Origin: an uncultured Bacilli bacterium | GTDB lineage: Bacteria; Bacillota_I; Bacilli_A; RF39; UBA660 | Reading direction: 5' to 3' | NCBI GenBank assembly: GCA_944373145.1 | Contig: CALWAL010000007.1 | Location: 26,005-90,004 of the forward strand | Length of the DNA stretch: 64,000 nt | In this document: positions 14,996 to 41,676 of the stretch, piece by piece | How positions within the stretch are numbered: the stretch's first letter is position 1 | Layout: every line of letters starts with the position of its first letter | Program-made: the position numbers and the translations under genes | Notes under the pieces: model-generated | Told to the model about the DNA's origin: nothing | What the model saw: only the letters and a program-made list of their open reading frames with translations | The model's database searches: none

Positions 14996-15004
14996 GATGA
15001 TTTT

Positions 15005-23037: not shown

Positions 23038-25671
23038 ATGAAATTTGTATACTTATTCAAAGAAGGTAATGCAGATATGAGAAACCTTCTAGGTGGTAAG
23101 GGTGCTAATTTAGCGGAAATGACTAATTTAGGATTACCAATTCCACAAGGTTTTACTGTTACGACAGAAGCTTGTACTGATTACTATAAAAATGATAAAA
23201 CAATTTCTAGTGAAATTGAAGAACAAATTTATACTGCTCTTCATGAATTAGAAAAAATGCAAGGCAAGACCTTTGGAGATGTTAATGATCCACTATTAGT
23301 ATCTGTAAGAAGCGGTGCACGTGCATCAATGCCAGGAATGATGGATACAATCTTAAATTTAGGTTTAAATGATGAAGCAGTAGAAGGATTTGCAGCAAAA
23401 ACTGGTAACCCACGTTTTGCATATGATTCTTATCGCCGTTTTATTCAAATGTATTCTGATGTAGTTATGGAAGTAAATAAATCATTCTTCGAAAAAATTA
23501 TTGATGAGTTAAAAGAAGAAAAAGGCATTAAGTATGATACTGAAATGACTGTTGAAGATTTACAAGAATTAGTAAAAAGATTTAAAAAGGTTTATAGTGA
23601 CCATATGAATGGTGCAGAGTTCCCACAAGATCCAAAAGAGCAATTAATGGGAGCTGTTAAAGCTGTATTTAGATCTTGGGATAATCCACGTGCTATTGTA
23701 TATCGCCGTATGAACGATATTCCAGGTGACTGGGGAACAGCTGTAAATGTTCAAGCAATGGTATTTGGTAATATGGGAGATACATCTGGTACAGGTGTAG
23801 CATTTACAAGAAATCCATCTACCGGTGAAAAAGGTATTTATGGAGAATATTTAATTAATGCTCAAGGCGAAGATGTTGTTGCTGGTGTTAGAACTCCTCA
23901 ACCAATTACTAAATTAGCTGAAGATATGCCTGAAGTTTATGAAGAATTTATGGCTATTGCTCATAAACTAGAAAACCATTATCGTGATATGCAAGATATG
24001 GAATTTACTATTCAAGAAGGAAAATTGTATTTCTTACAAACTCGTAATGGTAAAAGAACCGCACATGCAGCTATTCAAATTGCTTGCGATTTAGTTGATG
24101 AAGGTATGATTACGAAAGAAGAAGCAATTTTAAGAATTGAGGCTAAATCATTAGATCAATTATTGCATCCAACTTTTGATACTGAAAGTTTAAAAAATGG
24201 CGAAGTTATTGGTTCTGCTTTACCAGCATCTCCAGGTGCTGCTGCTGGTTATGTAGTATTTACTGCTGAAGAAGCTAAAGTTTTAGGTAAAGGCGGAAAA
24301 GGTGACCGTGTTATTTTAGTTCGTTTAGAAACTACACCAGAAGATATTGAAGGTATGGTTGCCGCTCAAGGTATTTTAACAGTTCGTGGAGGTATGACAT
24401 CACATGCTGCAGTTGTTGCTCGTGGTATGGGTACTTGTTGTGTATCAGGTTGTGGTGAAATTGTTATTAATGAAGAAGCTAAAGAATTTACTTTAGGCGG
24501 ATATACTTTCCATGAAGGTGATTATATTTCATTAGATGGATCTACAGGTAAGATTTATAAAGGAGATATTGAAACTAAAGAGGCAAGTGTTAGTGGCAAT
24601 TTTGGACGCATTATGGCATGGGCAGATGAAGTTAGAACTTTAAAAGTTCGTACAAATGCCGATAATCCACGTGACACTAAGAAAGCTTTAGAATTAGGGG
24701 CTGAGGGCATTGGTTTATGTCGTACAGAGCACATGTTCTTCGATGAAGTTAGAATTCCAAAAATCAGAAAAATGATTTTATCCGAAACTGTTGAAGCACG
24801 TGAAGCTGCTTTAAATGAATTAATTCCATTCCAAAAAGGCGATTTCAAAGAAATGTACAAGGCTTTAAATGGTCTACCAATGACTGTACGTTATTTAGAT
24901 CCACCACTACATGAATTTTTACCAACAGCTGAAGCCGATATTATTGCTCTTGCTAATGAAATGGGTGTTACGGTTGAACATTTAAAGAATAAATGTAATG
25001 ATTTACATGAATTTAACCCAATGATGGGACACAGAGGTTGCCGTTTAGCTGTAACTTATCCTGAGATTGCTAAAATGCAAACTAGAGCTTTAATGGAAGC
25101 TGCAATTGAAGTAAGTGAAGAAGAAAATATAACTATAGTTCCTGAAATTATGATTCCTTTAGTTGGCGAGGTTAAAGAATTAAAATTTGTAAAAAACATT
25201 GTAGTTGAAACTGCTGAATTAGTTAAGAAAGAGAAAAATTCAAATATTGAATACCATATTGGTACAATGATTGAAATTCCAAGGGCTGCTTTAACTGCCG
25301 ATAAGATTGCTGAAGAGGCTGAGTTCTTCTCATTTGGTACAAATGACTTAACACAAATGACATTTGGATTCTCAAGAGATGATGCTGGTAAGTTCTTAGA
25401 TGCATATTATCAAAATAAAATTTATGAATCAGATCCATTTGCTAAATTAGATCAAACAGGTGTTGGTCAATTAGTTAAAATGGCTGTTGAAAAGGGACGT
25501 GCAACTAGACCAAATATTAAATTAGGTATTTGTGGTGAACATGGAGGAGAACCAAGTAGTGTTGAATTCTGCCACAATCTAGGATTAACTTATGTTTCTT
25601 GTAGTCCATTTAGAGTACCAATTGCACGTTTAGCTGCTGCACAAGCTGTAATCAAAAATGGGAGGAACTAG
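23038..25671 (+). CDS. ppdK: Pyruvate, phosphate dikinase, with the C-terminal VIKNGRN supplied by the integrated element
   Basis: GGKGANLAEM, LVSVRSGA, GGMTSHAAVVARG (phospho-His), GIGLCRTEHMF and GICGEHGG. Confidence 0.97.
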   Translation: MKFVYLFKEGNADMRNLLGGKGANLAEMTNLGLPIPQGFTVTTEACTDYYKNDKTISSEIEEQIYTALHELEKMQGKTFGDVNDPLLVSVRSGARASMPGMMDTILNLGLNDEAVEGFAAKTGNPRFAYDSYRRFIQMYSDVVMEVNKSFFEKIIDELKEEKGIKYDTEMTVEDLQELVKRFKKVYSDHMNGAEFPQDPKEQLMGAVKAVFRSWDNPRAIVYRRMNDIPGDWGTAVNVQAMVFGNMGDTSGTGVAFTRNPSTGEKGIYGEYLINAQGEDVVAGVRTPQPITKLAEDMPEVYEEFMAIAHKLENHYRDMQDMEFTIQEGKLYFLQTRNGKRTAHAAIQIACDLVDEGMITKEEAILRIEAKSLDQLLHPTFDTESLKNGEVIGSALPASPGAAAGYVVFTAEEAKVLGKGGKGDRVILVRLETTPEDIEGMVAAQGILTVRGGMTSHAAVVARGMGTCCVSGCGEIVINEEAKEFTLGGYTFHEGDYISLDGSTGKIYKGDIETKEASVSGNFGRIMAWADEVRTLKVRTNADNPRDTKKALELGAEGIGLCRTEHMFFDEVRIPKIRKMILSETVEAREAALNELIPFQKGDFKEMYKALNGLPMTVRYLDPPLHEFLPTAEADIIALANEMGVTVEHLKNKCNDLHEFNPMMGHRGCRLAVTYPEIAKMQTRALMEAAIEVSEEENITIVPEIMIPLVGEVKELKFVKNIVVETAELVKKEKNSNIEYHIGTMIEIPRAALTADKIAEEAEFFSFGTNDLTQMTFGFSRDDAGKFLDAYYQNKIYESDPFAKLDQTGVGQLVKMAVEKGRATRPNIKLGICGEHGGEPSSVEFCHNLGLTYVSCSPFRVPIARLAAAQAVIKNGRN
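25641..25648 (+). other. attL core (ACAAGCTG) inside the ppdK 3' end
   Basis: Identical 8-mer at 39182-39189, extending to ACAAGCTGnnATCAAA at both sites. Confidence 0.8.
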
Positions 25672-25740
25672 TAATAGTCGATAATTCCTTGATTTTACAG
25701 GGTTTTATCAAGTTACTTTTTAATCCAAATTAGATAATTT

Positions 25741-25792
25741 AAGACTAAATCTAAATATATCGTCGCATATATTTACGGATTTAGTCTTTTTT
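25741..25792 (+). terminator. Element-supplied terminator for ppdK
   Basis: AAGACTAAATC-TAAATATA...TATATTTA-cg-GATTTAGTCTT followed by TTTT. Confidence 0.7.
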
Positions 25793-25831
25793 CGTGGAAT
25801 TCTGCGATGAAGAAATGGAGGTAATTACTGG

Positions 25832-26305
25832 GTGAAATTGATGTATTCTAGGCCAATATTAAGGGATTTATCGCAGGGCGCACGTATAGCTTTTGTAAGG
25901 CAGTTTAGGGCGAAGACACAGGATGAAATAGCTGGTTTGTTAGGTGCAACTGGCGAATGCAGAAGAAGGACTATGACAAGATATGAAAAGGGGGATAGAA
26001 ATCCTACCACAGCAAGAGCCAAGCTTATTGCTGAATTATTAAATGTTAATTATCATGCCATTAAGCAATATGATTACAAAGAACCATTGGATTTTATCTA
26101 TACTTTGTTATGGATGGAGGAGTTACTGCCTAATTATCATTTTGATGTAGATGATGTATTTATTACTGATGTGGATTTCCTTAATACTATTAATGCCTTT
26201 CTGAAAGAATGGGAGATTATGAAGAGAAAGAGAAAGAATAGGGAGATTAAGTATTCAACTTACATTGAGTGGAAGCTATCATATTCTTTCGAGGACAGAA
26301 AATGA
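25832..26305 (+). CDS. XRE-family HTH transcriptional regulator
   Basis: IAFVRQFRAKTQDEIAGLLG...MTRYEKGDRNP. ATGA overlap with the parB-like gene. Confidence 0.8.
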   Translation: MKLMYSRPILRDLSQGARIAFVRQFRAKTQDEIAGLLGATGECRRRTMTRYEKGDRNPTTARAKLIAELLNVNYHAIKQYDYKEPLDFIYTLLWMEELLPNYHFDVDDVFITDVDFLNTINAFLKEWEIMKRKRKNREIKYSTYIEWKLSYSFEDRK

Positions 26306-27141
26306 ATGGTACTAAAGTTATTAAGATAGTGGATATAGAACCGTTTAAGGATCATCCATTTATAGTTGAAGTTGATGACTCGTTGAAAGAATTGGCACAG
26401 AGTATTATGGAGAATGGTTTATTAAATCCTATTATTGTAAGAGAGAAAGGTAGTAAGTATGAGATGGTTTCTGGTCATAGAAGATTAAAAGCATTAGAGA
26501 TGAATGGTGCTGATGAAGTAGACGCATTTGTTAAAGCTTTATCCGATGATGAAGCTACTATATTTATGGTTGACTCTAATCTTCAAAGAGAGAAGATACT
26601 TCCTAGTGAAAGGGCATTTGCATATAAGATGAAGATGGATGCTTTAAAGCACCAAGGCAAAGCTTTGTCTCCTAAGGGAACAAAATCACATTCGGTCGAT
26701 GAGATAGCAGATACAAAGACTCAGGTCTTTCGTTATATAAGACTTACTTACTTGATTCCGGAACTGTTAAAGATTGTTGATGATACTGCTAGGACTAACG
26801 ATAAGCACAATATAACAATGGGTATTAGACCTGCTGTAGAATTGTCTTACTTGAGTAAGGATGAGCAAAAGTTGGTGTATTCAGAGATGATTTATGATGA
26901 TTTAAGTCCTTCACATGCACAAGCAATCCGAATAAGGAAGTTGAGTGAGAAGAAGAAACTAGATGCAGACAAGCTAGAGAAGATATTATTGGAGAAGAAG
27001 GGAAACCAACATGAGCAGATATCTTTTAATAAGGAGAATATAGAGAGTGTTTTGCCTTATGATCTGCTTAAGAGAGATAAGCGTTATATTGAAGAATATA
27101 TTATTGAAGCTATTAAGGCATATAAGAAGGGTAATAGATAG
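26302..27141 (+). CDS. ParB/RepB/Spo0J-family protein
   Basis: PFKDHPF, LAQSIMENGLLNPIIVR, YEMVSGHRR (ParB box) and NLQRE.ILPSERAFAY. Confidence 0.9.
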   Translation: MNGTKVIKIVDIEPFKDHPFIVEVDDSLKELAQSIMENGLLNPIIVREKGSKYEMVSGHRRLKALEMNGADEVDAFVKALSDDEATIFMVDSNLQREKILPSERAFAYKMKMDALKHQGKALSPKGTKSHSVDEIADTKTQVFRYIRLTYLIPELLKIVDDTARTNDKHNITMGIRPAVELSYLSKDEQKLVYSEMIYDDLSPSHAQAIRIRKLSEKKKLDADKLEKILLEKKGNQHEQISFNKENIESVLPYDLLKRDKRYIEEYIIEAIKAYKKGNR

Positions 27142-27149
27142 ACAATGTA

Positions 27150-27177
27150 AAAGGAAAGAGAGCTTTCTCTTTCCTTT
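27150..27177. terminator. Bidirectional terminator between parB and the convergent MTase gene
   Basis: AAAGGAAAGAGA-gctt-TCTCTTTCCTTT. Confidence 0.8.
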
Positions 27178-29407
27178 AGTTTTCTTCATCTTCTTCAACT
27201 GTTTCCATATCGTTAAATAGTTTCTTTGTATTTGTGTGATACCTATATTGGTATACTTCTAGTTCTCTTTTAAGAGCTAATTCAAGTTCTGTATATTTCG
27301 CTTCCATTAGTGTTAGCAATAGACAAATATCTGCTTGAGCACCTAGTGGAATAACCGGAATTGTTAATTGTCTAAAGTCTTCAAGTGTAATATAGTTAGT
27401 AGGTGAAGAAGTGTTGTTATAGTATCTTTTGATATGTTTATTGATTTTTTCTACAAAGTAGTCTGATTCTAATACATATCTTAGATATGCGGGTGATACT
27501 TCGTCTTCTATATTTTTAAATGGTCTTAATCGAAATACACTATCCGAGAATATAAAGTTAGGTTTTTGTACTATAGCTGCCTTAGTACCTTTTGAGTAAA
27601 TAGCGAATAATACATCATCCTTTTTCAACTTTCCTTTACTAATGAACTCATCTAAGTCTTCTTTTCTTATTCTTTCTGTATGAATAGTTTTGTTTTCTTT
27701 GATATACATTAGCGAACTGTCTTCCATAACAGCACCATTTTGTATTTCCTTTGTTGTAATATAACGATATGGGAAATTATCGTTGGTATCTATTTTCATG
27801 TCTTTTATTTTAGAACCAATAGTTATATCGGCAACATTAACTAGTGGAATCATTTTAATTTGATTGCTTTGTTTTAGTTGTTCTAAAGTATTGACTATAC
27901 ATTTGTTAACCCTTTTAATTTGTGTATTATACTTTAAACGTGATTTGTAATTAGCTTCTTCTTCATTCTCGTAAATGAAATCAGATAAGCATACATCTTC
28001 AATAGTTGTAAATGTGTGTTCTTTTTTATAATTAATGTAGTCACAAATATTTAATGAATATTTGTGATTTGCTATTTCTTCTGGAGTTGCTAAGTACGAT
28101 AGGTTGTCTATGCTCTTTCTACCTAATATAAGTTCTATGATGTTATCTATATTTTCATCACTAAAAGTTACTTGATTACTATTCTTAGTGCATATGTTAC
28201 CTGCATCAACAAATAATATATTGTTGTCTGTTTTGTTTTTTCGAATCAGAAACAGACATGTACCGGTATCAGTTCTTAGGAACATCTTTCTAGGTAGTAG
28301 TATTATTGTATCTATTTGATTGCTATCAACTAAATGTTTTTTTACTGCGGTTTCTTCAGGATTTGTTCTGGATAACATGTTTGGTGTGTCAATTGCCAAT
28401 GCTAATCCATTTTTATTTAGTGTGTATATGATGTGGTATATGAATGCCCAATCAGCTAACTCTTTATTAGGAAGAGGTTTGTCATTGAATCTCTCGTCGT
28501 CTTCTCGCAAAGCTGATTTATTCCAAGGTATTCCAAATGGTGGGTTAGCAAATATCAAATCGTACTTTTCTTTTTCTTCTTTATCATAAGTTAGCAATGT
28601 ATCACATTGAGAAATTTTAAAGTCCCTTACATTATGTATTATCATATTCATTCTACACAACATAGCAGGTATTGCATTTAATTCTTTGCCATAGAAAGGT
28701 ATAGTATTGTTAAATCTTGCATATTCGGTTAATAATGAACCACTTCCACAAGTAGGATCGTAGATGTTATTAGGATCAGTGATATATTGGTCTGAAATCT
28801 TTTTTAATAGTTTTACTATTGATGGTTGAGTATAGAATATGCCATTTTTAAGACTCATGGTATTGTTTGTATCTTTATTGTTTAGTAAGAATTCAAAGAT
28901 ATTACCAAATAAGTCATAATCAGATTTGTTAATGTCATAGTCAACATCTGATATAGCTTTTAATATGGTTGAATATATATTACTCCTTATATTTTGACTA
29001 GTTCCAATACCTTCTGCTTCAGTATCTATGTTTCTAAAGATTTCACATATCTCATATTTAGAAGACTGCTTGATATTCTTGAATATTGAGTTTAATGTTG
29101 AATCTAAACGACTACTATTCAATTCTTTTGCTACAATATTTTGGAATAAGTCTTCTGGGTATATGAAGAAATCTATATCACTTTGTACTTGAGATTTATA
29201 TGCTTCTGCCTCATTGTTATTTAGTTCAATATAATTTACATTGAAGCTAGTTTGAATATGCTTGATTATGCTTTCGGAAAGAAAGCGGTAGAATAAGATT
29301 AAGTATATGTATTTTTCATAACTAGTTATATCCTGACCTTTGTTATATCCTGTCAAAGCTTTTTTTAAGTTTTTTGTGATTGTTCCAACACTTTTCATTC
29401 TTCCCAT
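27176..29407 (-). CDS. Type I-like N6-adenine DNA methyltransferase (HsdM) fused to a single HsdS-like target recognition domain
   Basis: HsdM N-domain, FYTQP, DPTCGSGSLL (motif I) and ANPPFG (motif IV). The C-terminus has a TRD pattern (RYITTKEI, LKKDDVLF, YLRYVLES, FRQLTIPVIPLGAQ) plus a long helix. Confidence 0.85.
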   Translation of the reverse strand: MGRMKSVGTITKNLKKALTGYNKGQDITSYEKYIYLILFYRFLSESIIKHIQTSFNVNYIELNNNEAEAYKSQVQSDIDFFIYPEDLFQNIVAKELNSSRLDSTLNSIFKNIKQSSKYEICEIFRNIDTEAEGIGTSQNIRSNIYSTILKAISDVDYDINKSDYDLFGNIFEFLLNNKDTNNTMSLKNGIFYTQPSIVKLLKKISDQYITDPNNIYDPTCGSGSLLTEYARFNNTIPFYGKELNAIPAMLCRMNMIIHNVRDFKISQCDTLLTYDKEEKEKYDLIFANPPFGIPWNKSALREDDERFNDKPLPNKELADWAFIYHIIYTLNKNGLALAIDTPNMLSRTNPEETAVKKHLVDSNQIDTIILLPRKMFLRTDTGTCLFLIRKNKTDNNILFVDAGNICTKNSNQVTFSDENIDNIIELILGRKSIDNLSYLATPEEIANHKYSLNICDYINYKKEHTFTTIEDVCLSDFIYENEEEANYKSRLKYNTQIKRVNKCIVNTLEQLKQSNQIKMIPLVNVADITIGSKIKDMKIDTNDNFPYRYITTKEIQNGAVMEDSSLMYIKENKTIHTERIRKEDLDEFISKGKLKKDDVLFAIYSKGTKAAIVQKPNFIFSDSVFRLRPFKNIEDEVSPAYLRYVLESDYFVEKINKHIKRYYNNTSSPTNYITLEDFRQLTIPVIPLGAQADICLLLTLMEAKYTELELALKRELEVYQYRYHTNTKKLFNDMETVEEDEEN

Positions 29408-29539
29408 TATAACACCTCCATTTAATCAGTAAATATTATACCACTTTTTAACCGATTTTAGAATGTAACTACAATAATCAATGTTATTAGTTTAAATATC
29501 CCAATCTATATATCTGTCTTTTTGATTAGTCAAAATATA

Positions 29540-29558
29540 TCCCAAGTAACACTAGGGA
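29540..29558. promoter_or_regulatory. Operator-like palindrome, copy 1
   Basis: TCCCAAGTaacACTAGGGA, 17/19 identical to 36924-36942. Confidence 0.6.
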
Positions 29559-29662
29559 AGTTTTTGAAGTGAATTATGATGGTTGAATGTGCTCAGAAAT
29601 GTTTTAGTTTTTATAATAATTAATACCACTTTTTGTATATTTTAGAGTAAATTGGTTACTAA

Positions 29663-29844
29663 ATTTCGTACAATACTATGACAATTGTTAGATTACCTTT
29701 CGAGTTTATTATGGTGTTTTTTACTTTTTTGATAGTTTAGTGAAAAATGTCTTTTAGATTTCGTATAGTAATGTGACAGTTGATGGATTGTCTGGTTAGT
29801 TCTTCACCTTCACAACTTTTAAGATAATCCATCAATAATTGTCA
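29663..29844. repeat. Imperfect 32-bp direct repeat plus long inverted repeat
   Basis: 29663-29694 and 29758-29789 match at 25/32. TGACAGTTGATGGATTGTC (29774-29792) is inverted, with a small insertion, at 29823-29844. Confidence 0.55.
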
Positions 29845-30290
29845 GTTTAATTTTATATTACTATGATGGTTGATGAATCATCGGATTTACAGCGACGTTT
29901 TTACAACTTAGTGCGAGATTGCCAACTCGTTAAACGCAATAACAATACTAAAGATACTAATACTAATAATCAAAACATTAATTTTAATAAGAATATTAAC
30001 AAGAGAAAGATAAAAGATAATATTCAGTGATCTAGACGGTATTTTGTAATTTAGAGAATGGGGATATTTAAACATTAAGAACACAGGAACCCCAATTATA
30101 TTTATAGTATCGACGTACAATTTCACTAGAAGATGTATATGCAGATATAAGATGATTATTTTATTTGATTAAGCTGGTCAAGCGGAGATTTTGAAGTGAC
30201 TATGGTTATTTATACTAGTTTTGCTTTAAAGTCTCTCAAACCGGTTTAAAGTTGCTAAATATTTTGAATTTAGAGAGGATTTGAGAATGT

Positions 30291-30680
30291 ATGAAAGCAC
30301 ATTGGATTGTTAAACTTAAGAATCCATTTAATGGAATGAAGCTGGTTGCTTATGAAGATGGACGTGTCTATGTTGGTGGAACTGGACCTTTAATTGGTAA
30401 GCTTAAATCAACTTCTATGAAGAAAATTAGATATTACATCAACGAGTATGCCCATTATATCAAGATAGTTGGATATGAAGTTCAGGATATATATGGATTT
30501 ATAGCCAAGTTCTGGGATAATAGCAATGTTAAGCGTGATGACCTGACGGTTAAAGGTTGGCCTTACGAGCGTGAATTCCTAGAGATTATATTTAACAAGA
30601 ATTCATATCGTAAGTTTTTGATTGGTGATGGTGAGTTTGTTTCTATTATGCATGATTATTTATTAACTTCGTTAGATTAA
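30291..30680 (+). CDS. Hypothetical protein
   Basis: 129-aa ORF with a GAGG RBS upstream. Confidence 0.65.
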   Translation: MKAHWIVKLKNPFNGMKLVAYEDGRVYVGGTGPLIGKLKSTSMKKIRYYINEYAHYIKIVGYEVQDIYGFIAKFWDNSNVKRDDLTVKGWPYEREFLEIIFNKNSYRKFLIGDGEFVSIMHDYLLTSLD

Positions 30681-30695
30681 GCATGCAGAGGAATG

Positions 30696-30900
30696 AAACT
30701 GGTTTTGTTTTTATCAGCAACTGCTGCAGGTAAAACTGGTTCTGGGGATCGTTGCATGAAGCGTTGCTTGATTCGGTGGATCCGGCGTAGCTTGTAGGAG
30801 AGCAAGTTACCGGTTTTACCTAATCCTATTTGTAAGAACATTACCTAGTGGTATTTATACTTTTATATGGATTTTTAGTGCAACGAAGTGTGGGTTGCCT
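30696..30900. other. GC-enriched structured non-coding segment of unknown function
   Basis: 13-bp stem AGGTAAAACTGGT/ACCGGTTTTACCT (30728-30821) encloses sub-hairpins. A GCAAC...GTTGC hairpin lies near 30880-30898. Confidence 0.45.
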
Positions 30901-31012
30901 TTTCTGCTGTCTTCACAATGTGCTGGAGTAAGTAATAATATTTATATTCTGTTCTATTTCCTATTGATTAAGTTTTACTTTTAAGGTTAAATACAAAATC
31001 AAAGGTGAATAG

Positions 31013-31360: not shown

Positions 31361-31593
31361 TTTCCTTATAGTTTTTCTACCTTTTTTAGGGTTTTTGCAG
31401 CTTTTTTATATATTTTAGTAGAACATCCTATTGTAGAAATGTCCTGCTATTATGAGAAAAATATTACGATTTTGAAACGTCTTGATTTTTGCTTCTTTTC
31501 TCTGTTAGTGGGTATTTCTATTACTTTGTTCGAAAGATTCTTCAAATGGGCAGAGAATGCCGAATCAGGTGGTTATTTGAGAGGAGTTGTACT

Positions 31594-32795: not shown

Positions 32796-32824
32796 TTCTC
32801 TTCCTTTTCTATGATTAATAGACT

Positions 32825-33814: not shown

Positions 33815-33841
33815 TTTAAGAGTAAGAAAGGAAGGAAAATT

Positions 33842-34192
33842 ATGGCACTAATTAAATGTAAAGAATGTGGAAAAGAGATTAGTGATACTGCTAATGAATG
33901 TGTTCATTGTGGATGTCCTTTAGGTAAAGTGAAGTTCTATACTTCTAATAATTGGACAGGTATAGCGAGTAGATATATTATCTCTAATAATAATGGACAA
34001 GTTCTTGCTAAACTAAAAGGTGGCGAAGAATTTGAAATAAATATTGATGAAGATACCAAATTTTATGTTCGATGCAATACTACTCTTAGCAGAAAAAAAC
34101 ATGAAGTTGTAGCATATGCATGTAAGATTAATAAGTTTCTAGTCGAAATAACTTTTATGGGAGCAAGTACTCGTGTATCAGAGATTAATTAA
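33842..34192 (+). CDS. Zinc-ribbon header protein 2 (soluble beta-rich tail)
   Basis: MALIKCKECGKEISDTANECVHCGCP. No TM. Confidence 0.8.
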   Translation: MALIKCKECGKEISDTANECVHCGCPLGKVKFYTSNNWTGIASRYIISNNNGQVLAKLKGGEEFEINIDEDTKFYVRCNTTLSRKKHEVVAYACKINKFLVEITFMGASTRVSEIN

Positions 34193-34212
34193 TATTTTAA
34201 AGGAGGAAAATT

Positions 34213-34665
34213 ATGGCATTAATTAAATGTAAGAGTTGTGGTAAAGAAATTAGCGATAAGTCTACTAAATGTGTTCATTGTGGTTGTGATACTGATTATT
34301 CAATTACATATTTTTGTTCTGAGTGTGGTAAAGAGTTTGATAACATTAAATGTATGAATTGTGGTTATTCTCCTAATAATAAGAAAGATACTACTAATCA
34401 ATCAGCGAATGTTGGTTTTAATTTTAAACCATTATTAATAAGTTTAGCAGTAGGAATTATTACTTTTATTATCATGTCCTATGTTGAAGGGATTTTTATT
34501 GTGGACATATCTGTGTCAATAATACTATTTTTAACTTGTTTGGGAGCTCTAACTGGTTCTTTGGATGATTTTGTTGATACAATGGACGATTTTCATGCAA
34601 GTACAGATAAAGATCCTTATAAAAGAGCTTTGTACAAGGAAATTAAGAAGAATAACAAGAAGTAA
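34213..34665 (+). CDS. Zinc-ribbon header protein 3 (double zinc ribbon plus two TMs)
   Basis: MALIKCKSCGKEISDKSTKCVHCGCD, second ribbon CSECG...CMNCG, then two hydrophobic segments. Confidence 0.8.
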   Translation: MALIKCKSCGKEISDKSTKCVHCGCDTDYSITYFCSECGKEFDNIKCMNCGYSPNNKKDTTNQSANVGFNFKPLLISLAVGIITFIIMSYVEGIFIVDISVSIILFLTCLGALTGSLDDFVDTMDDFHASTDKDPYKRALYKEIKKNNKK

Positions 34666-34721
34666 TTGCTATAAAAGACTATTTACTATGGTACAATATA
34701 CTTAACTGAGGAGGTTCAATT

Positions 34722-35420
34722 ATGACTAAAAAAATTGGAATTAAGAAAATTGAAACTAGTATTCCTTGTGATGTTTTTGTTTCGAGTATAGATGGAATCG
34801 TTGGTGCATCAAAAGGTGTTAATCTAGATGTTTACTTCACTTCTAAGAAAATTTATGAATTAGAAGATACCATGTTTGTTGTACTTGACATGTATGATGG
34901 TACCGGTGAAATGAAAGCTTTATTAGTGGGTAATAGAGATAAAGAATTTACTTCACTAGTTGATGGTATTAAGATTGATGCCGATGTAAGATATAGAATA
35001 AGTGGTAATGTTTCTATACCTTCTGACACTGATGATGTGGAGTTACCTTTTATGAATGATATTAAGAATAATAAGTTGTTTTGTATTTATGCTTTTCAAA
35101 GAAATCCTAAATCAACGTATTGTGAACTAAAACATCTTGCTAGGACAGAGATTGAGAAAGTTCGTGATGGTATAAGTACTGTTCAACAAAGTATTATTGA
35201 TAGTCTTAAGTATGATAAAAGTATTTCTATGGAAGAACTTCATATCATGTATTGTTTTGATGGTGATGGTGGTTTTGATCTAGACATACATCAATTTTAT
35301 GATTTATATGTAAGCCCATTGATAAAGAGTAAAGAAATTAAGGTGTGCAATTTAAAACAATGTTCTAAAGAGAAACCTTTACCAATGCCAGAATTTGAGC
35401 TTATGTATAATTGTAATTAA
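34722..35420 (+). CDS. Hypothetical protein with possible OB-fold
   Basis: GAGGAGG RBS. VLDMYDGTGEMKALL...YRISGNV resembles OB-fold nucleic-acid-binding domains. Confidence 0.6.
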   Translation: MTKKIGIKKIETSIPCDVFVSSIDGIVGASKGVNLDVYFTSKKIYELEDTMFVVLDMYDGTGEMKALLVGNRDKEFTSLVDGIKIDADVRYRISGNVSIPSDTDDVELPFMNDIKNNKLFCIYAFQRNPKSTYCELKHLARTEIEKVRDGISTVQQSIIDSLKYDKSISMEELHIMYCFDGDGGFDLDIHQFYDLYVSPLIKSKEIKVCNLKQCSKEKPLPMPEFELMYNCN

Positions 35421-35486
35421 TAGACAGAGATTAATTCTCTGTTTTTTCTAAAGACGCTGTAATTTTGTTTAATGTATGTTTTAATG

Positions 35487-35678
35487 TAGAAGATGCTACA
35501 TATGCTGTAGTACCTGAAGACAACATCAAGAGGTAGCTCCTCTTGTGAAGATACATGATGTGGTTTGATTCCGGTTAAATCATGGAAGGGTTATAAGTGA
35601 ACGATTGTCCCTAGTGCAGTAAACAAGCGCCGCCATTTAGAACTTTAGCAAGATAGACTTTGTAGTCTGTCTTTTTAT
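35487..35678 (+). ncRNA. Candidate ~190-nt structured non-coding RNA, family unrecognised
   Basis: Possible extended -10 (TGtTTTAAT) upstream, four successive hairpins and an intrinsic terminator AAGATAGACT-ttgt-AGTCTGTCTT-TTT. No ORF. Confidence 0.4.
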
Positions 35679-35831
35679 TTGGCCTAATATGGGTGTAAAC
35701 GAAATCATTTGATTTCTTTTATATTAGAAACTTGTCCAAAATGCGTTGCTTTTTATCTGAATTTAAGTGATTTATATAAACGAAATGTGAAAGATGTTTT
35801 CTTTTACACTTTAGAAAAGAGGTAATTTAAT

Positions 35832-36434
35832 ATGGAAAGCAAAGTATGGGGTTACTGCCGCTGTTCCACCAACGATTCAAAACAAGATGTCAAGTATCAG
35901 ATTGATGCATTAATTGATAAAGGTGTAGATATATCTAATATAAGGTATGAGTATATTTCTGGTAGGAAGGAACATAGACCTGGACTTGATGCACTGTTAG
36001 AAGAAATGAATGAGGGTGATACTTTAATAGTTACTGATATTACTCGTTTGTGTAGGAATACAAAGGTTTTGTGTGAAATAATTGATTTGATTATTGCAAA
36101 GAAATTTAGGCTTATTGTTGGAAGTATTGATATAGATTGTAGGAATGGTAGTTTAGATCCTATGATTGAAGGTATGCTAAAAATTAACGCGGTTTTTGGG
36201 GAGATGGAAGCAAAACTGAAAATACATCAAATCCATTTAGGATTAGCTACAGCTGTTAAGGCTGGTAAGAAGTTAGGACGTCCTAAGTCAACTTATGATG
36301 ATATTCCAAAGGTGTTTATGCAGTATTATCCTAAGTATAAGAATGGAACTCTAAACAAAATGGCTTTTGCTAGAGTTACTCAATTATCGTATCCAACTAT
36401 TTATAAGTACCTAGATATTGTTGAGAATGCTTAG
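35832..36434 (+). CDS. Small serine recombinase (resolvase/invertase family)
   Basis: GYCRCST catalytic motif, EYISG...RPGL, GDTLIVTDITRLCR, GKKLGRP and C-terminal HTH. Confidence 0.93.
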   Translation: MESKVWGYCRCSTNDSKQDVKYQIDALIDKGVDISNIRYEYISGRKEHRPGLDALLEEMNEGDTLIVTDITRLCRNTKVLCEIIDLIIAKKFRLIVGSIDIDCRNGSLDPMIEGMLKINAVFGEMEAKLKIHQIHLGLATAVKAGKKLGRPKSTYDDIPKVFMQYYPKYKNGTLNKMAFARVTQLSYPTIYKYLDIVENA

Positions 36435-36569
36435 TAGTAGTTATTATTAAGAGAACTTTTTGCTAAAGTTTTCTTTTTTTTTGATTAATCTGAGTTTTAT
36501 TCAAAATATTTCGTATAACAGTATAGTTGCTTTTTCCATAATGGGCAACTAGAAAGTAAGGTGATTTGT

Positions 36570-36893
36570 ATGAATTATGGTTATTATGTAAAAGGAAGAA
36601 GTGAGATGGAAAATTGGGATACTTATTATGATGTGTATTGTTATGTCCCAGATGACGAGAAAATCTTTTGCGACGAAATAGGCAGTAGTAAAAATTTGGA
36701 TTATCTTCTTGATATTATGGGAGAAGGTGATAGCCTTCATCTCACTAATCTCTTTGATTTAGGAAGAAGTTGGGATAAGGTTATTAAGGCTTTGTACATT
36801 CTTAATGATAATAATATTAGATTGTTTGTTATGAACGATGAGGTTAATCTTGATGATGTAATATATGTAATTACAGGTGCCGAAGTAGCTTAA
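36570..36893 (+). CDS. Degenerate resolvase-like protein lacking the catalytic YxRxS motif and the HTH
   Basis: IFCDE...LDYLLDIMGEGDSLHLTNLFDLGRS...IRLFV matches the resolvase core. The N-terminus reads MNYGYYVKGRS. AAGGTGA RBS precedes ATG 36570. Confidence 0.65.
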   Translation: MNYGYYVKGRSEMENWDTYYDVYCYVPDDEKIFCDEIGSSKNLDYLLDIMGEGDSLHLTNLFDLGRSWDKVIKALYILNDNNIRLFVMNDEVNLDDVIYVITGAEVA

Positions 36894-36923
36894 TAAGCTA
36901 CTTTTTTAATGTTTGATTTTTAT

Positions 36924-36942
36924 TCCCAAGTAGGACTAGGGA
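36924..36942. promoter_or_regulatory. Operator-like palindrome, copy 2
   Basis: TCCCAAGTaggACTAGGGA, upstream of the microprotein-integrase genes. Confidence 0.6.
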
Positions 36943-37145
36943 GAATTTTCACACTATTGTCTGGTAAGGATGTACGTATGTCTTTTAGTGAGAATATTTA
37001 TGTATTAATGCTTGATAATTCGCTGTTTTTATAAGGTTTTTAGCACTTTTTTCAACTTTTTGCATTTAAAATTGCGAAACGCCTGACACAAATCGTAACA
37101 ACTAACAAGCTCGTTTGAGAGTTTTGGAAAGTGTGGTGGATTATT

Positions 37146-37307
37146 GTGTCTAATAGGATTGATTTCAAACTTAGTGATTCAAATAAGAAAATACTTAATA
37201 TGAATCTTGCTGTTGAGATTATTAGAAACTTATTATTTGTAAATGAAGTTATAACTTCAGAAGAGTTTCAAAATGTTATTAAGTGTGCTAATCGTAGTGT
37301 CAAATGA
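37146..37307 (+). CDS. 53-aa SHOCT-like microprotein upstream of the integrase (absent from the ORF track)
   Basis: GTG start behind GGTGGA. Sequence is MSNRIDFKLSDSNKKILNMNLAVEIIRNLLFVNEVITSEEFQNVIKCANRSVK*. Confidence 0.55.
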   Translation: MSNRIDFKLSDSNKKILNMNLAVEIIRNLLFVNEVITSEEFQNVIKCANRSVK

Positions 37308-37351
37308 TTGTATAAAAGATATTAAGATTAAAATAGAGGTGAGAAATTATT

Positions 37352-39079
37352 ATGGATTCAATATGTTTTTATGCTCGTGTTTCCACGAAGCATGAATCTC
37401 AATTATATTCTTTTGAGAACCAAGTTCAATTATATGATATGTTTTTAGTAGAGCATTCTCATGAGAATTGGGAAGTATATGATAGATATTTTGACAAAGG
37501 TATAACAGGTACTTCGATGAAAAAGCGTAAGGGTTTTTTAAGGATGATAGATGATGCTAAACGTGGTTGCTTTAATACTATTATAACCCGTGAGGCTTCT
37601 CGTTTTGCAAGAAATGTTCAAGATACTCTTAATGTTTCAATTGATCTTGTTGAGAGAGGTATTAGACTTATTTTTATTGAAGATAAGCTAGATACAAAAC
37701 AAGATGAAGATTGGAAAAGTAGATTAACACAACTTGCTATTGATGCTGAAAAGCATTCAAAAACACAATCAGTCAACGCTAAAGCAGGTCAAAAAATATC
37801 TAGAGCGAAACATGTATTATATGGTAATGGGAATGTATTAGGTTATGATAGAGTAGGAAAGGAATATGTCATTAATGCTGAGCAAGCTAAGGTTGTTAGA
37901 TTGATTTTTGATATGTGTTTACGTGGAAGCGGAAGTAGAGATATTCAATACGAACTAGAGAAGAAAAACTATCTTACATCAACCGGTTTAGAGAACTGGA
38001 ACGTTGCAACCATCACAAGAATACTTCGTAACTCGATATATTGTGGTACTGTTGTTTACAATAAAAGTTATAGTAGTGATTATTTACATCAAAAGCGTAT
38101 TCTTAATAAAGGAGAAGTAGAGCAACTCGTTGTAGAAGATAGAGTTCCGGCAATTGTTTCTAAAGAAGATTTTGCTAGAGCACAGGAGATACTTGATAGC
38201 CATAAAACTAATAATAAAGGTGTAGTGACTACGGTTGGGAAACCACCGACTACTATCTTTGGGAAGAAACTCAAATGTAGTTGTGGATATAGTATGCAGA
38301 AAAAGAAATATCATACATATAAGGATGGACATACTGCCTATTGTTATCAATGCTATGACCAAGTAAATAGAGGCTCTTTTACCTCTAGAAAGAAACACGG
38401 TGTAAGTGTTGAAGGTGTTTGTGATACAAAAATAATTCCAGATTGGAAATTGAAATTAGCATCCTATACTATATTTGATATGTTAATTGATAGAAGAGAG
38501 GATATTATCGATATTATAGATAAACTACTAGAATCAGCGGTTGATGATGATAAAAATCTTCTATGTAGTGAGCAGGAGTTTTATGAAAAAGAAATAGAAG
38601 CCTTGAAGAGAAGGATATCTAAGTTAATGGATTTATATACTAATGAATATATAACTCTGAATGAGTTTAACGAAAAGAAGAAAGAAATAGATACCACAAT
38701 GAATGAATATAATGCTAAACTAAACAAACTTATAACTAATAAGTGTATAACTCCAAAAACAATTAGTGAACGTTTAGCTGAATGTAAAGATATAATTACT
38801 AATAGTTTTATGAATTATAAAGATGGAACTACATATGAGTTGTTAGTAGATTCTTTTGTTGATAGAATTATTGTAAGTAATGATAAGCTTGAATGGCATA
38901 TGAGATTAACAAAAGAAATTAAAATGCCGCTTGATGATGTTATAAGAGAGAAAGAAGTGTTTATAGGTACATTATCACTTACTAAAGATGACGCTACATA
39001 TTATTCTAAGTATTGCAATGATTTATCTAGAGTATGCTTTGATAAAGCATTGCTGGTTGATATATATCTTATGTTCTGA
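37352..39079 (+). CDS. Large serine recombinase (integrase)
   Basis: FYARVST...Q, YFDKGITGT, REASRFAR, LGYDR, recombinase domain (ILRNSIYCG), zinc ribbon (KCSCG...YCYQC) and coiled coil. Confidence 0.95.
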   Translation: MDSICFYARVSTKHESQLYSFENQVQLYDMFLVEHSHENWEVYDRYFDKGITGTSMKKRKGFLRMIDDAKRGCFNTIITREASRFARNVQDTLNVSIDLVERGIRLIFIEDKLDTKQDEDWKSRLTQLAIDAEKHSKTQSVNAKAGQKISRAKHVLYGNGNVLGYDRVGKEYVINAEQAKVVRLIFDMCLRGSGSRDIQYELEKKNYLTSTGLENWNVATITRILRNSIYCGTVVYNKSYSSDYLHQKRILNKGEVEQLVVEDRVPAIVSKEDFARAQEILDSHKTNNKGVVTTVGKPPTTIFGKKLKCSCGYSMQKKKYHTYKDGHTAYCYQCYDQVNRGSFTSRKKHGVSVEGVCDTKIIPDWKLKLASYTIFDMLIDRREDIIDIIDKLLESAVDDDKNLLCSEQEFYEKEIEALKRRISKLMDLYTNEYITLNEFNEKKKEIDTTMNEYNAKLNKLITNKCITPKTISERLAECKDIITNSFMNYKDGTTYELLVDSFVDRIIVSNDKLEWHMRLTKEIKMPLDDVIREKEVFIGTLSLTKDDATYYSKYCNDLSRVCFDKALLVDIYLMF

Positions 39080-39181
39080 CAACTAAGTAATACACTTAGT
39101 TGTTTTTATGTTATAATAATGTAGTAATATTTAGATGTAGTCTGATATGTGATATATCTTCCTCTTATATCCTACAACCGT

Positions 39182-39189
39182 ACAAGCTG
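39182..39189 (+). other. attR core of the large element, which is also the left core of the relic island
   Basis: ACAAGCTG, followed in frame by AIKEKNNK* (stop 39213-39215) and a terminator at 39230-39262. Confidence 0.8.
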
Positions 39190-39373
39190 CTATCAAAGAA
39201 AAAAACAATAAATAACACATAATAAATATAGACTGAGATTAAAATTAATCTTAGTCTTTTTTGATATGTGATAGTAAAAGATAACAATATATATAATGTT
39301 AAAATATCTTTTTATAGTATAATAGAATTAATAGATAAATAGTAATTTATTGTTATGATTGGAGGAAAAGAAA

Positions 39374-39727
39374 ATGGGAAAAGTAATTGTATTATTTGAG
39401 GTTACAATAAAAGATGGAAAGAAAGATGATTATTTAAAGAGAGCTGAAATCTTAAAAGCACATTTAAAGAATATGAAAGGTTTTATATCTGCTGAAAGAT
39501 TTCAATCTTTAGCAAGCGAAAAGAAAGTATTAAGTATGACAGTATGGGAAAATGAGGAAAGCGTTCAAATTTGGAGAAATTTATCTGAACATAGAGAAAG
39601 CCAATTAGCAGGTAGAATGGAAGATTTTGAAGATTACAAAATAACAGTAGTTACACCAATTCGTGAATATGGAATGAATGATAGAACTAATGCACCTAAA
39701 GATTCAAATGAATATTTTAACGTATAA
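39374..39727 (+). CDS. Antibiotic biosynthesis monooxygenase (ABM)-family protein
   Basis: GFISAERF, SMTVWENEES...WRNLSEHRESQ..GR. GGAGG RBS. Confidence 0.85.
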   Translation: MGKVIVLFEVTIKDGKKDDYLKRAEILKAHLKNMKGFISAERFQSLASEKKVLSMTVWENEESVQIWRNLSEHRESQLAGRMEDFEDYKITVVTPIREYGMNDRTNAPKDSNEYFNV

Positions 39728-39754
39728 TAATTATGCCAGAAAGAGTTATAATTT

Positions 39755-40390
39755 ATGAATAATTATTTTGAATATGGAGATAAAGAAATAAATTATCTAA
39801 AAAACAAAGATAAAAAATTAGCAAAAGTAATTGATAATTTAGGTTTTGTTGAAAGACCAGTAGATACAGATATATTTGAATCAATAGTTCATATGATGGT
39901 TGGACAACAAATTTCAACAAAGGCACATAAAACTATTTGGAAAAGAATGTTAGATTATTATAATATAGTGAAACCTATAAATATTTCAAAAACAAGCATA
40001 GGACAAATGCAAAGTTTTGGAATGACATATATAAAAGCTAACAATATTATAAATTTTTCAAATAAAGTATTAAATAATGAAATAAACCTTGAAGAACTTA
40101 ATAATAAAACAGATAATGAAGTAATAAGAGAGTTATCAAATATAGATGGTATTGGAGAATGGACAGCAGAAATGATAAGGCTACATTCAATGCAAAGAAA
40201 AGATATATTTAGTTATAAAGATTTAGCGATTCATAGAGGGCTAAAACTGATATATCATCATAAGAAAATTGACAAAAAGCTATTTGATAAATATAAAAAA
40301 AGATTTAGCCCTTATGGTAGTATAGCAAGCATTTATATATGGGCAGTAGCAGGATGTAAAATACCGAATTTAGAGGAGGTTTTGGAATGA
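39755..40390 (+). CDS. alkA: DNA-3-methyladenine glycosylase II (AlkA, HhH-GPD family)
   Basis: MVGQQIS and helix-hairpin-helix LSNIDGIGEWTAEM...DLAIHRG, FSPYGSIASIYIW. Confidence 0.85.
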   Translation: MNNYFEYGDKEINYLKNKDKKLAKVIDNLGFVERPVDTDIFESIVHMMVGQQISTKAHKTIWKRMLDYYNIVKPINISKTSIGQMQSFGMTYIKANNIINFSNKVLNNEINLEELNNKTDNEVIRELSNIDGIGEWTAEMIRLHSMQRKDIFSYKDLAIHRGLKLIYHHKKIDKKLFDKYKKRFSPYGSIASIYIWAVAGCKIPNLEEVLE

Positions 40391-40926
40391 TATATACGAC
40401 ACACTATAAAGCTCCAGTAGGAGATATATTGTTAGCAAGTAAAGATGAAAAGCTAATTGGATTATGGATTGAAGGACAAAAGTATTATCTATCTAATTTA
40501 AAAGAAGAAATACAAGAAAATGATAAAGATGAAACATTGGTAAAAACCAAAAAATGGTTAGATAGATATTTTAATGGAGAAAAGCCTAAAATAGATGAAT
40601 TAGATTTAGCACCAATAGGAAGTGATTTTAGACAAGAAGTATGGAAAATATTATGCAAGATCCCTTATGGAGAAGTAACTACTTATAATGATATATCAAA
40701 AGAAATTGCTGAAAAAAGAGGAATAAAAAGAATGTCTGCACAAGCTGTGGGTGGTGCAGTAGGTCATAATCCTATTTCAATTATTATTCCTTGTCATAGA
40801 GTTGTAGGAACAAATGGTAGTTTAACAGGATATGCAGGAGGAATAAATAAAAAGATATTTTTACTAAAACACGAATATGTAAATATGAGTAATTTGTTTG
40901 TTCCAAAGAAAGGAACTGCTCTATGA
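40387..40926 (+). CDS. ogt: Methylated-DNA--protein-cysteine methyltransferase
   Basis: IPYGEVTTY, AQAVGGAVGHNP and active site IIPCHRV. Confidence 0.93.
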   Translation: MIYTTHYKAPVGDILLASKDEKLIGLWIEGQKYYLSNLKEEIQENDKDETLVKTKKWLDRYFNGEKPKIDELDLAPIGSDFRQEVWKILCKIPYGEVTTYNDISKEIAEKRGIKRMSAQAVGGAVGHNPISIIIPCHRVVGTNGSLTGYAGGINKKIFLLKHEYVNMSNLFVPKKGTAL

Positions 40927-41465
40927 AAAGGTGTAAATGGTGTAATCTAAATAATCCAAATTATATTGAATACCACGATAACGAATGGTGCAGACCAAAC
41001 TTTGATGATAAGTATTTATATGAAATGCTAATATTGGAGTCTTTTCAAGCAGGATTATCTTGGGAATGTGTTTTAAATAAAAGGGATAGTTTTAGAAAAG
41101 CATTTGATAATTTTGATATTGATAAAGTTTGCTCTTATGATGAAAATAAGATAAACGAATTATTGAATAATAAAGGCATTATTAGAAATAAATTAAAAAT
41201 AAAAGCAAGTATAAATAATAGTATAATCTTCAAAACGATAGTTAATGAATATGTGACATTCCATAATTATTTAAAATCATTTACACAAGATAAAACAATT
41301 TATGAAATAGATAAAACAGGTAACGAATTGTCTGATAATATATCAAATGACCTAAAAAAACGAGGAATGAAATTTGTAGGAAGTACAATTATATATTCTT
41401 ATTTACAGGCAATAGGGGTTATCTATTCACACGATGAAGAATGTAGTTTGTATAAAGCAAATTAG
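40923..41465 (+). CDS. tag: DNA-3-methyladenine glycosylase I
   Basis: RCKWC, YHDNEW, LESFQAGLSW and FVGSTIIYSYLQAIG...H. Confidence 0.93.
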   Translation: MKRCKWCNLNNPNYIEYHDNEWCRPNFDDKYLYEMLILESFQAGLSWECVLNKRDSFRKAFDNFDIDKVCSYDENKINELLNNKGIIRNKLKIKASINNSIIFKTIVNEYVTFHNYLKSFTQDKTIYEIDKTGNELSDNISNDLKKRGMKFVGSTIIYSYLQAIGVIYSHDEECSLYKAN

Positions 41466-41592
41466 AGCGACAACTTACAATTTATCAAGTAGATGAAAAA
41501 ATATTTTTTGGTACAATTAAGATGCGTATTGAAAAAATAAGCCAAATAGTATTTGTTTTTGACAAAAAACACTCCACGAATATTACAGTGCT

Positions 41593-41626
41593 ACAAGCTA
41601 CAGTTAAAGAAAAATTAAACAAATAA
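41593..41626 (+). other. Third att core plus probable native ppdK 3' end (QA-TVKEKLNK*)
   Basis: ACAAGCT at 41593-41599, in-frame tail ending at TAA 41624-41626, followed by a strong terminator and resumption of backbone genes. Confidence 0.72.
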
Positions 41627-41646
41627 TCGAAGGCAATTTAATAGTT

Positions 41647-41676
41647 AAAAGCAAGCTAAGATATTAGCTTGCTTTT
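41647..41676 (+). terminator. Probable native ppdK terminator
   Basis: Perfect 13-bp stem AAAAGCAAGCTAA-gata-TTAGCTTGCTTTT. Confidence 0.85.

Follow-up and report, generated by a model that had tools for sequence, protein, structure and literature searches.

The 3' end of ppdK as a probable attachment site for serine-recombinase islands in uncultured gut Bacilli

The 64,000-nucleotide stretch of DNA analysed here (the window; contig CALWAL010000007.1, positions 26,005 to 90,004, from an uncultured Bacilli bacterium of the RF39 lineage) carries a ppdK gene, encoding pyruvate, phosphate dikinase (PPDK), which is separated from a pfkB-family kinase gene by a 13.5-kb island, E1, and a 2.4-kb block, E2. 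The reading we favor, with a probability of about 0.78, is that the 3' end of ppdK is the bacterial attachment site (attB) for a group of related islands that large serine recombinases (LSRs) mobilize, with E1 as a mobile member and E2 as an older one. E1 has precise borders, an empty site in other strains of the species and a recent history of spread between hosts; the exchange lies in a CAA glutamine codon, nine codons before the stop; and the C-terminal tail of PPDK changes with the occupancy of the site. In a full-text literature search, ppdK did not turn up as a recombinase target or att site.

In the mechanism that we propose, the recombinase would exchange strands within the CAA codon of Gln869, and the right arm of the incoming element would supply an alanine codon, seven or eight more codons, a stop and a terminator, leaving PPDK whole with a new tail; the previous ppdK tail and terminator would stay behind, out of use, beyond the element's distal border. 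A newcomer would insert at the ppdK-proximal junction, because only that junction keeps the conserved coding half-site of ppdK, and would push older blocks downstream. The order E1, E2, original end would then be one of increasing age. Such a rule fits the observation that the proximal E1 is polymorphic while the distal E2 is fixed.

Borders and crossover point of E1

The window holds three in-frame ppdK-like ends. Site A, at 25642, reads ...GCT GCA CAA GCT GTA ATC AAA AAT GGG AGG AAC TAG, encoding QA-VIKNGRN and a stop after ...ARLAAAQA; the last eight codons and the stop of the window's ppdK (25645-25671) are thus supplied by E1. Site B (39183-39218) reads ...ACC GTA CAA GCT GCT ATC AAA GAA AAA AAC AAT AAA TAA, for QA-AIKEKNNK, and site C (41594-41629) ...GTG CTA CAA GCT ACA GTT AAA GAA AAA TTA AAC AAA TAA, for QA-TVKEKLNK. 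The first-pass annotation had described these three tails correctly: each is followed by its own terminator, all three of which fold as a stable hairpin with a T-run; the tails at sites B and C are equal-length homologs (8 codons each, 25/33 nt in common by manual count); and the left arm TACA-N4-TACAAGCT precedes both of them. An 18-nt degenerate pattern, ACAAGCTNNNRTYAAARA, has exactly three matches in the 64 kb, sites A, B and C, all on the + strand, and none in any of 100 dinucleotide-preserving shuffles (3 observed vs 0 expected by chance).

Contigs of the same species were retrieved by exact look-up of the downstream pfkB protein. Six are free of E1 (L082, L083, L084, L086, L087 and L089; L-numbers denote the database contigs compared, X-numbers public sequencing runs), and in them ppdK is followed directly by ABM-alkA-ogt-tag-pfkB. 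The junction, ...GCTGCTGCA CAA GCT GCT ATC AAA GAA..., combines the ppdK side of site A with what follows CAA at site B: ppdK, through its CAA, meets GCTGCTATCAAAGAAAAAAACAATAAATAA directly, reading GCACAA and then GCTGCTATCAAAGAAAAAAAC. Because these strains join the two sides in this way, E1 is a precise insertion. Their ppdK genes are 99.8-99.96% identical in nucleotide sequence to the window's up to the crossover, and the encoded PPDK, 878 aa where complete, ends AAIKEKNNK in all six rather than VIKNGRN, the ending that the first-pass annotation had named as telling against a swapped tail.

Look-up of the E1 helix-turn-helix (HTH) protein gave 22 contigs, and in all places shown E1 stands at the same distance after ppdK. 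The ppdK genes that host E1 share 66.5-87% amino acid identity and have differing neighbours, and the first 3 kb of E1 are 96-100% identical. Compared from end to end, the island is 99.3% identical in L110, from a human gut sample, and 99.1% in L108/L109; outside E1, only ppdK of L108 and L110 aligns with the window, at 72-74% nucleotide identity. Further host variants come from runs X2 and X5 and from L125, and a scan of JGI metagenomes with the E1 right arm added one more occupied host and no E1 circle junction. In all, E1 is found at ppdK in at least six host lineages besides the window's, at least seven altogether, with chicken and human gut as sources. The E1 LSR, looked up exactly, matched only the window's own record and a contig of one run, and an IMG/VR search with it gave no relatives; the single IMG/VR match to a 19-mer of the E1 left arm was set aside as chance, since it lies inside a coding region of an unrelated phage. 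In L108/L109 an insertion sequence (DDE_Tnp_1, 476 aa; 15476-16906) sits inside E1, between the gene for a 107-aa protein and the recombinase gene.

The crossover point follows from comparing these hosts. The right junction of E1 is ...CCTACAACCGTA-CAA in all copies, and the element-side arm is followed by four different host tails among L104, L108, L109 and L110. After the CAA of the right attachment site (attR) comes GCTGCTATCAAAGAA in the window, TCTGTTGTTAAAGAAAAATAA in L104 and run X2, GCAACAATTAATAATCGTTAA in L108/L109 and GCCGCTATACGTGAAAAAGGGAGCAACTAG in L110; in shorter form, ...CCGTA-CAA is followed in the four hosts by GCTGCT, TCTGTT, GCAACA or GCCGCTATACGT. Since CAA alone is common to all of them, and host sequence at the left attachment site (attL) varies right up to it, the exchange lies within CAA. 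The core CAAGCT proposed in the first-pass annotation is accordingly shortened to CAA (CA or AA), the next triplet being an alanine codon that varies among GCT, GCC, GCA and TCT. The family member in L059, with CAA at its proximal copy and CAG at its distal one, points to CA as the probable central dinucleotide. Among the natural E1 sites the right halves have 8-16 of 24 nt in common and the left halves, which encode ...PIARLAAAQ, 13-21 of 24.

Two junctions call for separate mention. In L110 the displaced native tail (17588-17620; GCCGCTATACGTGAAAAAGGGAGCAACTAG) is clearly homologous to the E1-supplied tail GCCGCTATCAAAAATGGGAGGAACTAG; either the E1 arm was captured from an L110-like host, or the L110 tail is the fossil of an older E1-like element. 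In run X4 the left end of E1 (window position 25639) is joined to a sequence other than ppdK; this ends in GATGTGGCA, similar to an element-side arm, and E1 may there be second in a stack.

PPDK tails and other occupants of the site

The claim that the C-terminus of PPDK switches with the occupant holds both for the E1-free contigs and within sets of PPDKs from single species, which carry four tails each. In the PPDK cluster of the L108 host (90% identity) these are ATINNR, AAIKNGRN, AAIKNGGQL and AAIKARQN. The majority form, ATINNR (873 aa), is identical to the tail displaced to the right junction of E1 in L108, and AAIKNGRN is the one that E1 supplies. PPDKs 98-100% identical to that of the window over the C-terminal 318 aa end AVIKNGRN, AAIKEKNNK, AAIKSRQN or AAIKAHQN; the gene for the AAIKSRQN form is followed by a terminator and then by an HTH gene of the E1 family. 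Altogether, 56 different tails occur among the 120 closest PPDK representatives, and the ppdK reading frame stays open with every occupant, at 873-878 aa. Solved PPDK chains in the PDB align with the window's protein at E 1e-50, as far as the tail. The swap is probably tolerated, because the region after AAAQA is naturally variable across Bacillota and aligns with the last few residues of the solved Clostridium symbiosum enzyme. What had been called mimicry of the host tail is better described as the supply of an end: the conserved element-side arm does encode QAAIK, but what follows QAAIK is variable. For annotation, this means that PPDK C-termini in these clades tell which element is present, and that near-identical PPDKs differing in the tail only should be taken neither for sequencing errors nor for alleles.

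The site is a recurrent hotspot, as the first-pass annotation had supposed, and E1 is one of several occupants. Homologues of the E1 HTH gene directly follow ppdK in L005, L035, L038, L080 and L128, and in other genomes and in strains of the same species the site is occupied by elements with such an HTH gene or with recombinases 36-39% identical to the E1 LSR (39% in L080, 36% in L045). Recombinase-less blocks with the same borders are found in L033 (an ABC transporter), L059, L005 and L035, the last in a tandem arrangement analogous to that of the window; an apparent third tail in L035 (15297) was taken as chance, a 302-aa open reading frame (ORF; 14489-15397) ending within about 100 nt. A DNA-level search for repeated ppdK ends in L001-L080 gave only L059 and L005 above controls; the other repeated ends were recognized by peptide pattern together with the shared left arm. 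In L005 the two ends (10721-10845 and 17775-17900), comprising tail and terminator, are 99% identical over about 120 bp, starting exactly at CAA, a repeat far longer than in the other cases.

Repeats of this length exceed typical serine-recombinase cores, and they could suggest that the repeated ends arose by target-site duplication, or by homologous recombination that copied the 3' end of ppdK, rather than by serine-recombinase exchange between att sites. We regard this as very improbable. Even in L005 the identity has the CAA as its boundary; left of this codon no distal copy is ppdK-like, the sequence there being a conserved arm that these copies share; the same E1 is joined to hosts with unrelated right-hand sequences; and both E1, beside its right arm, and the L080 element, near its right end, carry an LSR gene.

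Origin of the E2 block

E2 lies between sites B and C. Its left border, the right side of site B (CAA GCT GCT ATC AAA), fits the element-supplied QAAIK consensus seen in E1, L128, L126 and L080, which the right side of site C does not. At its far end, the arm to the left of site C, ATTACAGTGCTA-CAA, is unlike ppdK (GCTGCTGCA-CAA) and of the element-side type A-C-N-G-T-N-S-T-A-CAA, which is also found at the distal junctions or attR of L005, L033, L035, L059 and E1. The end encoded at site C is xVKEK-like, as are AVVKEKSN at the empty site of L119/L124 and SVVKEK, the displaced end in the L104 host; with its terminator it stands 159 nt before pfkB. In L119 ppdK, ending AVVKEKSN, is separated from pfkB by 91 nt, with upstream synteny as in the window, and related species (e.g. 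L119, L124, L004, L010) have different genes or none between ppdK and pfkB. The family-type arm at site C, the QAAIK tail at site B and the adjacency of ppdK and pfkB in a related species are the reasons for which E2 is most likely an older insertion by the same route, now stranded, fixed and vertically inherited. It would be what is left of a larger island, or else a cassette that never had a recombinase and was formerly moved in trans. Of the stacked integrations first proposed from the sequence, that of E1 is thus established by its empty site, while that of E2 is supported indirectly, if consistently, and has no recombinase of its own.

The simplest alternative is that the block is ordinary ancestral backbone and site C a chance likeness in A+T-rich DNA, only E1 having been inserted. 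The block is present in every contig of the species seen, its G+C content (26.2%) is a little under that of its flanks (28.5-30.7%), and it carries housekeeping-type repair genes and no recombinase. This reading is nevertheless unlikely in our view. The 18-nt pattern occurs at three sites only and never in the shuffles; site C keeps the reading frame, has a terminator behind it and lies just upstream of the pfkB promoter region, where ppdK ends in L119; on its left it agrees with the family's element-side arm and not with ppdK; and related species have other genes or none at this place. An ancestral block behind ppdK throughout the lineage had been named in advance as speaking against stacked integration; this is the case in part, at the level of the species, in which the block is fixed, but the block is absent from related species.

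A number of points weigh against the reading of E1 and E2 as members of one LSR-moved family. Direct adjacency of ppdK and pfkB was seen in one related species only, L119, and this is distant (ppdK 67%, pfkB 78% identical). In all contigs of the window's species, E2 is present at 99.1-99.96% identity, diverging like its flanks; no strain without E2, and no PPDK of the species ending ATVKEKLNK, was found. E2 contains neither a recombinase gene nor a remnant of one, the best tblastn match of three family LSRs being weak (E 0.015), and no element with its two arms was found elsewhere, a JGI metagenome scan for the left arm being empty. Outside TACA-N4-TA, the left arms of E2 and E1 agree at 10 of 24 positions (manual count), and the E1 recombinase may therefore not act on that of E2. 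As to E1 itself, its rebuilt phage-type attachment site (attP) has its best dyad axis between C and A, with 12/24 positions pairing, but shuffled sequence does as well if its best axis is picked from a scan of all axes. The two codons after CAA come as GCTGTA, GCCGCT or GCTGCA in copies of E1 that are 99-100% identical over kilobases (window 25645-25650 and the attL of L094, L095, L097, L100, L110 and L125); these may be attP alleles or reflect occasional exchange further right. Finally, the Logan contigs of the source run, made by an assembler that drops rare variants, show no excised circle or empty-site junction. The joints 25644/39185, 39185/41595 and 25644/41595 were all not found there; a joint 24200->39098 was disregarded because one of its sides is only 22 nt long.

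The want of a recombinase may also be taken at face value. E2 would then be a cassette, consisting of tail, terminator, promoter with leader, cargo and arm, that was captured and can still be moved in trans by a resident recombinase, making the ppdK end a gene-capture platform comparable to ACME/psiSCC at orfX or to cis-mobilizable elements. Both arms of E2 are intact with no recombinase remnant between them; small recombinase-less blocks with the same borders occur in unrelated genera (L033, L059, L005 and L035); and the leader motif TAATAGATAAATAGTAATTT recurs at ppdK- or pfkB-linked genes in two other species (L126/L127, at 12121 in L126, and L116/L117, at 594 in L116), standing before genes 3' of ppdK or 5' of pfkB, which suggests an expression module shared by ppdK-site cassettes. 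Recombinase-less elements moved by a neighbour have been described for composites of the staphylococcal cassette chromosome, SCC (PMC3026799), and proposed for the ssrA islands of Dehalococcoides (PMC3146451). Still, E2 is fixed in the species and diverges like backbone, no second context or circle junction was found for it, and its left arm differs from that of E1 at most positions. We hold this course of events possible but doubtful, and present mobility of E2 is a prediction at most.

A broader and equally tentative proposal, on which we would not bet at even odds, is that the ppdK end serves gut Bacillota generally as a serine-recombinase platform for gene capture, with recombinase-less cassettes stacked newest-first and exchanged between genera by E1-like islands. 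If so, the array would be an ordered record of acquisitions, the PPDK C-terminus a marker of the current occupant, and tolerance of very different right half-sites by the E1 recombinase would explain its unusually broad host range.

Returning to E2 as an older, stranded insertion, three minor points concern its content. The gene caller places the ABM start later than the ORF list does. Relatives of the AlkA protein include three at 73-77% identity, the rest being at or below 60%, and the one context fetched (L122) is not at ppdK. Nothing supports the idea that an open frame leading into site C (...IYQVDEKIFFGTIKMRIEK...) is a fossil of an LSR C-terminus. In L085 (1-7873), a contig of the species, 7.8 kb of unrelated genes stand before the block, which begins at window position 39666 and so retains just the final 20 codons of ABM; from that sample there is also a ppdK with the tail AAIKSRQN, followed by an E1-family HTH gene (L128). 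L085 is either a rearranged array or a chimeric scaffold.

Relation to known islands and gene content of E1

By its architecture, the ppdK site would be a known kind of tandem composite island, at a new target gene. The CcrAB and CcrC enzymes of SCC elements are large serine recombinases. SCC/SCCmec composites with ACME (arginine catabolic mobile element) stand in tandem at the 3' end of orfX (rlmH) in staphylococci, with direct repeats between them, and ACME/psiSCC lack a recombinase (PMC3026799, PMC7029739). Common to both cases are an LSR-type insertion in the 3' end of a conserved single-copy housekeeping gene that is kept, here ppdK, and tandem units between copies of the site (here A, B and C), some of them, such as E2, without a recombinase. 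Unlike SCC, the exchange at ppdK lies nine codons inside the coding region and swaps protein tail and terminator, the hosts are uncultured low-G+C gut Bacilli and Clostridia, and one element is found at 99% identity in hosts whose PPDKs are 67-87% identical.

A closer architectural match than SCC is offered by the ssrA islands of Dehalococcoides (McMurdie et al. 2011), which lie in tandem behind a single-copy essential gene, bounded by repeats of its 3' end, and share a module of a serine integrase of about 540 aa (DsiB), a 200-aa small serine recombinase (DsiA) and a ParB-domain protein, with no transfer genes; some are devoid of this module and are considered cis-mobilizable or fixed (PMC3146451). 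E1 has a corresponding trio, a 575-aa LSR, a 200-aa recombinase and a ParB_N protein, the likeness again being one of architecture. The ssrA target is a tmRNA gene and not a protein tail, the cargo differs, and the module stands at attL on the reverse strand, whereas the E1 recombinase is at attR on the forward strand.

Another metabolic gene with site-specific accretion at its 3' end is fda of Streptococcus thermophilus, where ICESt1/ICESt3 and cis-mobilizable elements, which have att sites but no integrase, accumulate by means of tyrosine integrases and conjugative partners; the ppdK site uses serine recombinases, and no conjugation genes were found in E1. The insertions of A118 in comK, SPbeta in spsM and skin in sigK, made by serine integrases, split the gene and inactivate it until excision. 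They share with E1 the class of enzyme and a precise att exchange inside a protein-coding gene, but ppdK is kept whole by the supplied end.

What makes the site of interest is that the docking point belongs to a gene of central metabolism, in gut bacteria that are abundant and for the most part uncultured, and that it provides a natural experiment, one 13.5-kb island 99% identical in many hosts, with precise empty sites for comparison. Judging from sequence, the E1 LSR uses natural attB sites of at least four kinds, unlike one another in their right halves, which makes it a candidate broad-host integrase for bacteria currently without genetic tools.

The features of the region are listed in Table 1.

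Table 1. Features of the ppdK-pfkB region, in window coordinates
Feature	Position	Strand	Basis or remark
ppdK (pyruvate, phosphate dikinase), 877 aa	23038..25671	+	ORF; PPDK Pfam domains in called genes
attL crossover codon CAA (Gln869), host ppdK/E1 junction	25642..25644	+	host side varies up to CAA; element constant from ATCAAAAATGGG
E1, 13.5-kb island	25644..39184	+	precise empty site in conspecifics; full-length near-identical copies in L110, L108
E1-supplied replacement ppdK end, A-VIKNGRN and stop	25645..25671	+	same end (AAIKNGRN/AVIKNGRN) on PPDKs 67-87% identical
Terminator hairpin and T-run after site A, E1-supplied	25741-25793	+	-29.9 kcal/mol over 129-nt stretch, z -4.3
XRE-type HTH gene, conserved leftmost gene of the element family	25832..26305	+	Pfam HTH_19/HTH_3
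ParB_N-domain protein	26269..27141	+	Pfam PF02195, E 2e-16; phrog_4715
Orphan type I-like N6-adenine methyltransferase (cargo), with one specificity domain fused to it	27176..29407	-	Pfam N6_Mtase, E 1e-70; PADLOC MTase_I, Specificity_I
Small serine recombinase, 200 aa	35832..36434	+	Pfam Resolvase, E 6e-25; 0.9 kb upstream of large recombinase
Large serine recombinase (LSR), 575 aa	37352..39079	+	Pfam Resolvase and Recombinase; phrog_95 integrase, E 1e-98
E1 element-side left arm (P-left), ...TCTTATATCCTACAACCGTA-CAA, left half of attR	39160..39185	+	identical in L104, L108, L109, L110
E2, 2.4-kb block without recombinase	39185..41595	+	all conspecific contigs; absent from L119, L124, L004, L010
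E2-supplied ppdK end, A-AIKEKNNK and stop	39186..39218	+	in use in E1-free strains, displaced here; fits QAAIK consensus
Terminator hairpin and T-run after site B, E2-supplied	39230-39263	+	z -6.7
Leader motif TAATAGATAAATAGTAATTT, 20 nt, between -10 box and ribosome-binding site of E2 operon	39329..39348	+	unique in window
E2 cargo operon	39374..41465	+	Pfam matches, called genes
ABM monooxygenase-like	39374-39727	+	Pfam
AlkA-like HhH-GPD glycosylase	39755-40390	+	Pfam
Ogt	40387-40926	+	Pfam
Tag	40923-41465	+	Pfam
Site C left arm, ATATTACAGTGCTA-CAA, element-side type	41579..41596	+	fits A-C-N-G-T-N-S-T-A-CAA
Displaced ppdK end, A-TVKEKLNK and stop, probably original	41597..41629	+	in frame with CAA; xVKEK-like
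Terminator hairpin and T-run after site C (displaced end)	41644-41679	+	z -5.6
pfkB-family kinase, ancestral downstream neighbour of ppdK	41786..42682	+	3' of ppdK in L119 (adjacent), L124, L004, L010, L035

The LSR gene of E1 ends 104 nt before attR, at site B. The encoded protein has a serine-recombinase catalytic domain (PF00239, E 1e-20, residues 6-148) with a YARVST motif near the N-terminus, and a Recombinase domain (PF07508, E 9e-24). The zinc ribbon PF13408 gave no match even at E <= 1, and a weak one in the L080 homologue; cysteine pairs are visible in the E1 protein. The C-terminal region of the A118 integrase (RD-ZD-CC, residues 157-515) matches weakly (E 4e-4), and the solved structures that match the LSR are those of a conjugative-transposon recombinase, SPbeta SprA/YokA and the TP901-1 and A118 integrases. 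This enzyme presumably catalyzes the integration of E1, its assignment to these att sites coming from position and comparison, and E1 appears to be a currently mobile island moved by it. The 200-aa resolvase is a possible CcrA/DsiA-like partner. Between the small and large recombinase genes, a 110-aa ORF (36561-36893) matches the resolvase domain faintly (E 0.017) and looks like a third serine-recombinase gene that has degenerated.

E1 also has about a dozen small genes without assigned function. Among the E1 proteins tested there are no capsid, tail, terminase, lysis or conjugation proteins, and the PHROGs matched are integrase, ParB, repressor-type and unknown-function or membrane families only. 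The central genes (about 31000-33100 of the window), encoding 113/115-aa, 143-aa, 106-aa, 75-aa and HTH proteins, recur in another element, seen in L107 and L111-L114, with an identical 143-aa protein; that element has a tyrosine integrase and a DnaB-like helicase and mostly adjoins recG. To judge from these shared genes, E1-type elements and the recG-adjoining elements evidently exchange modules.

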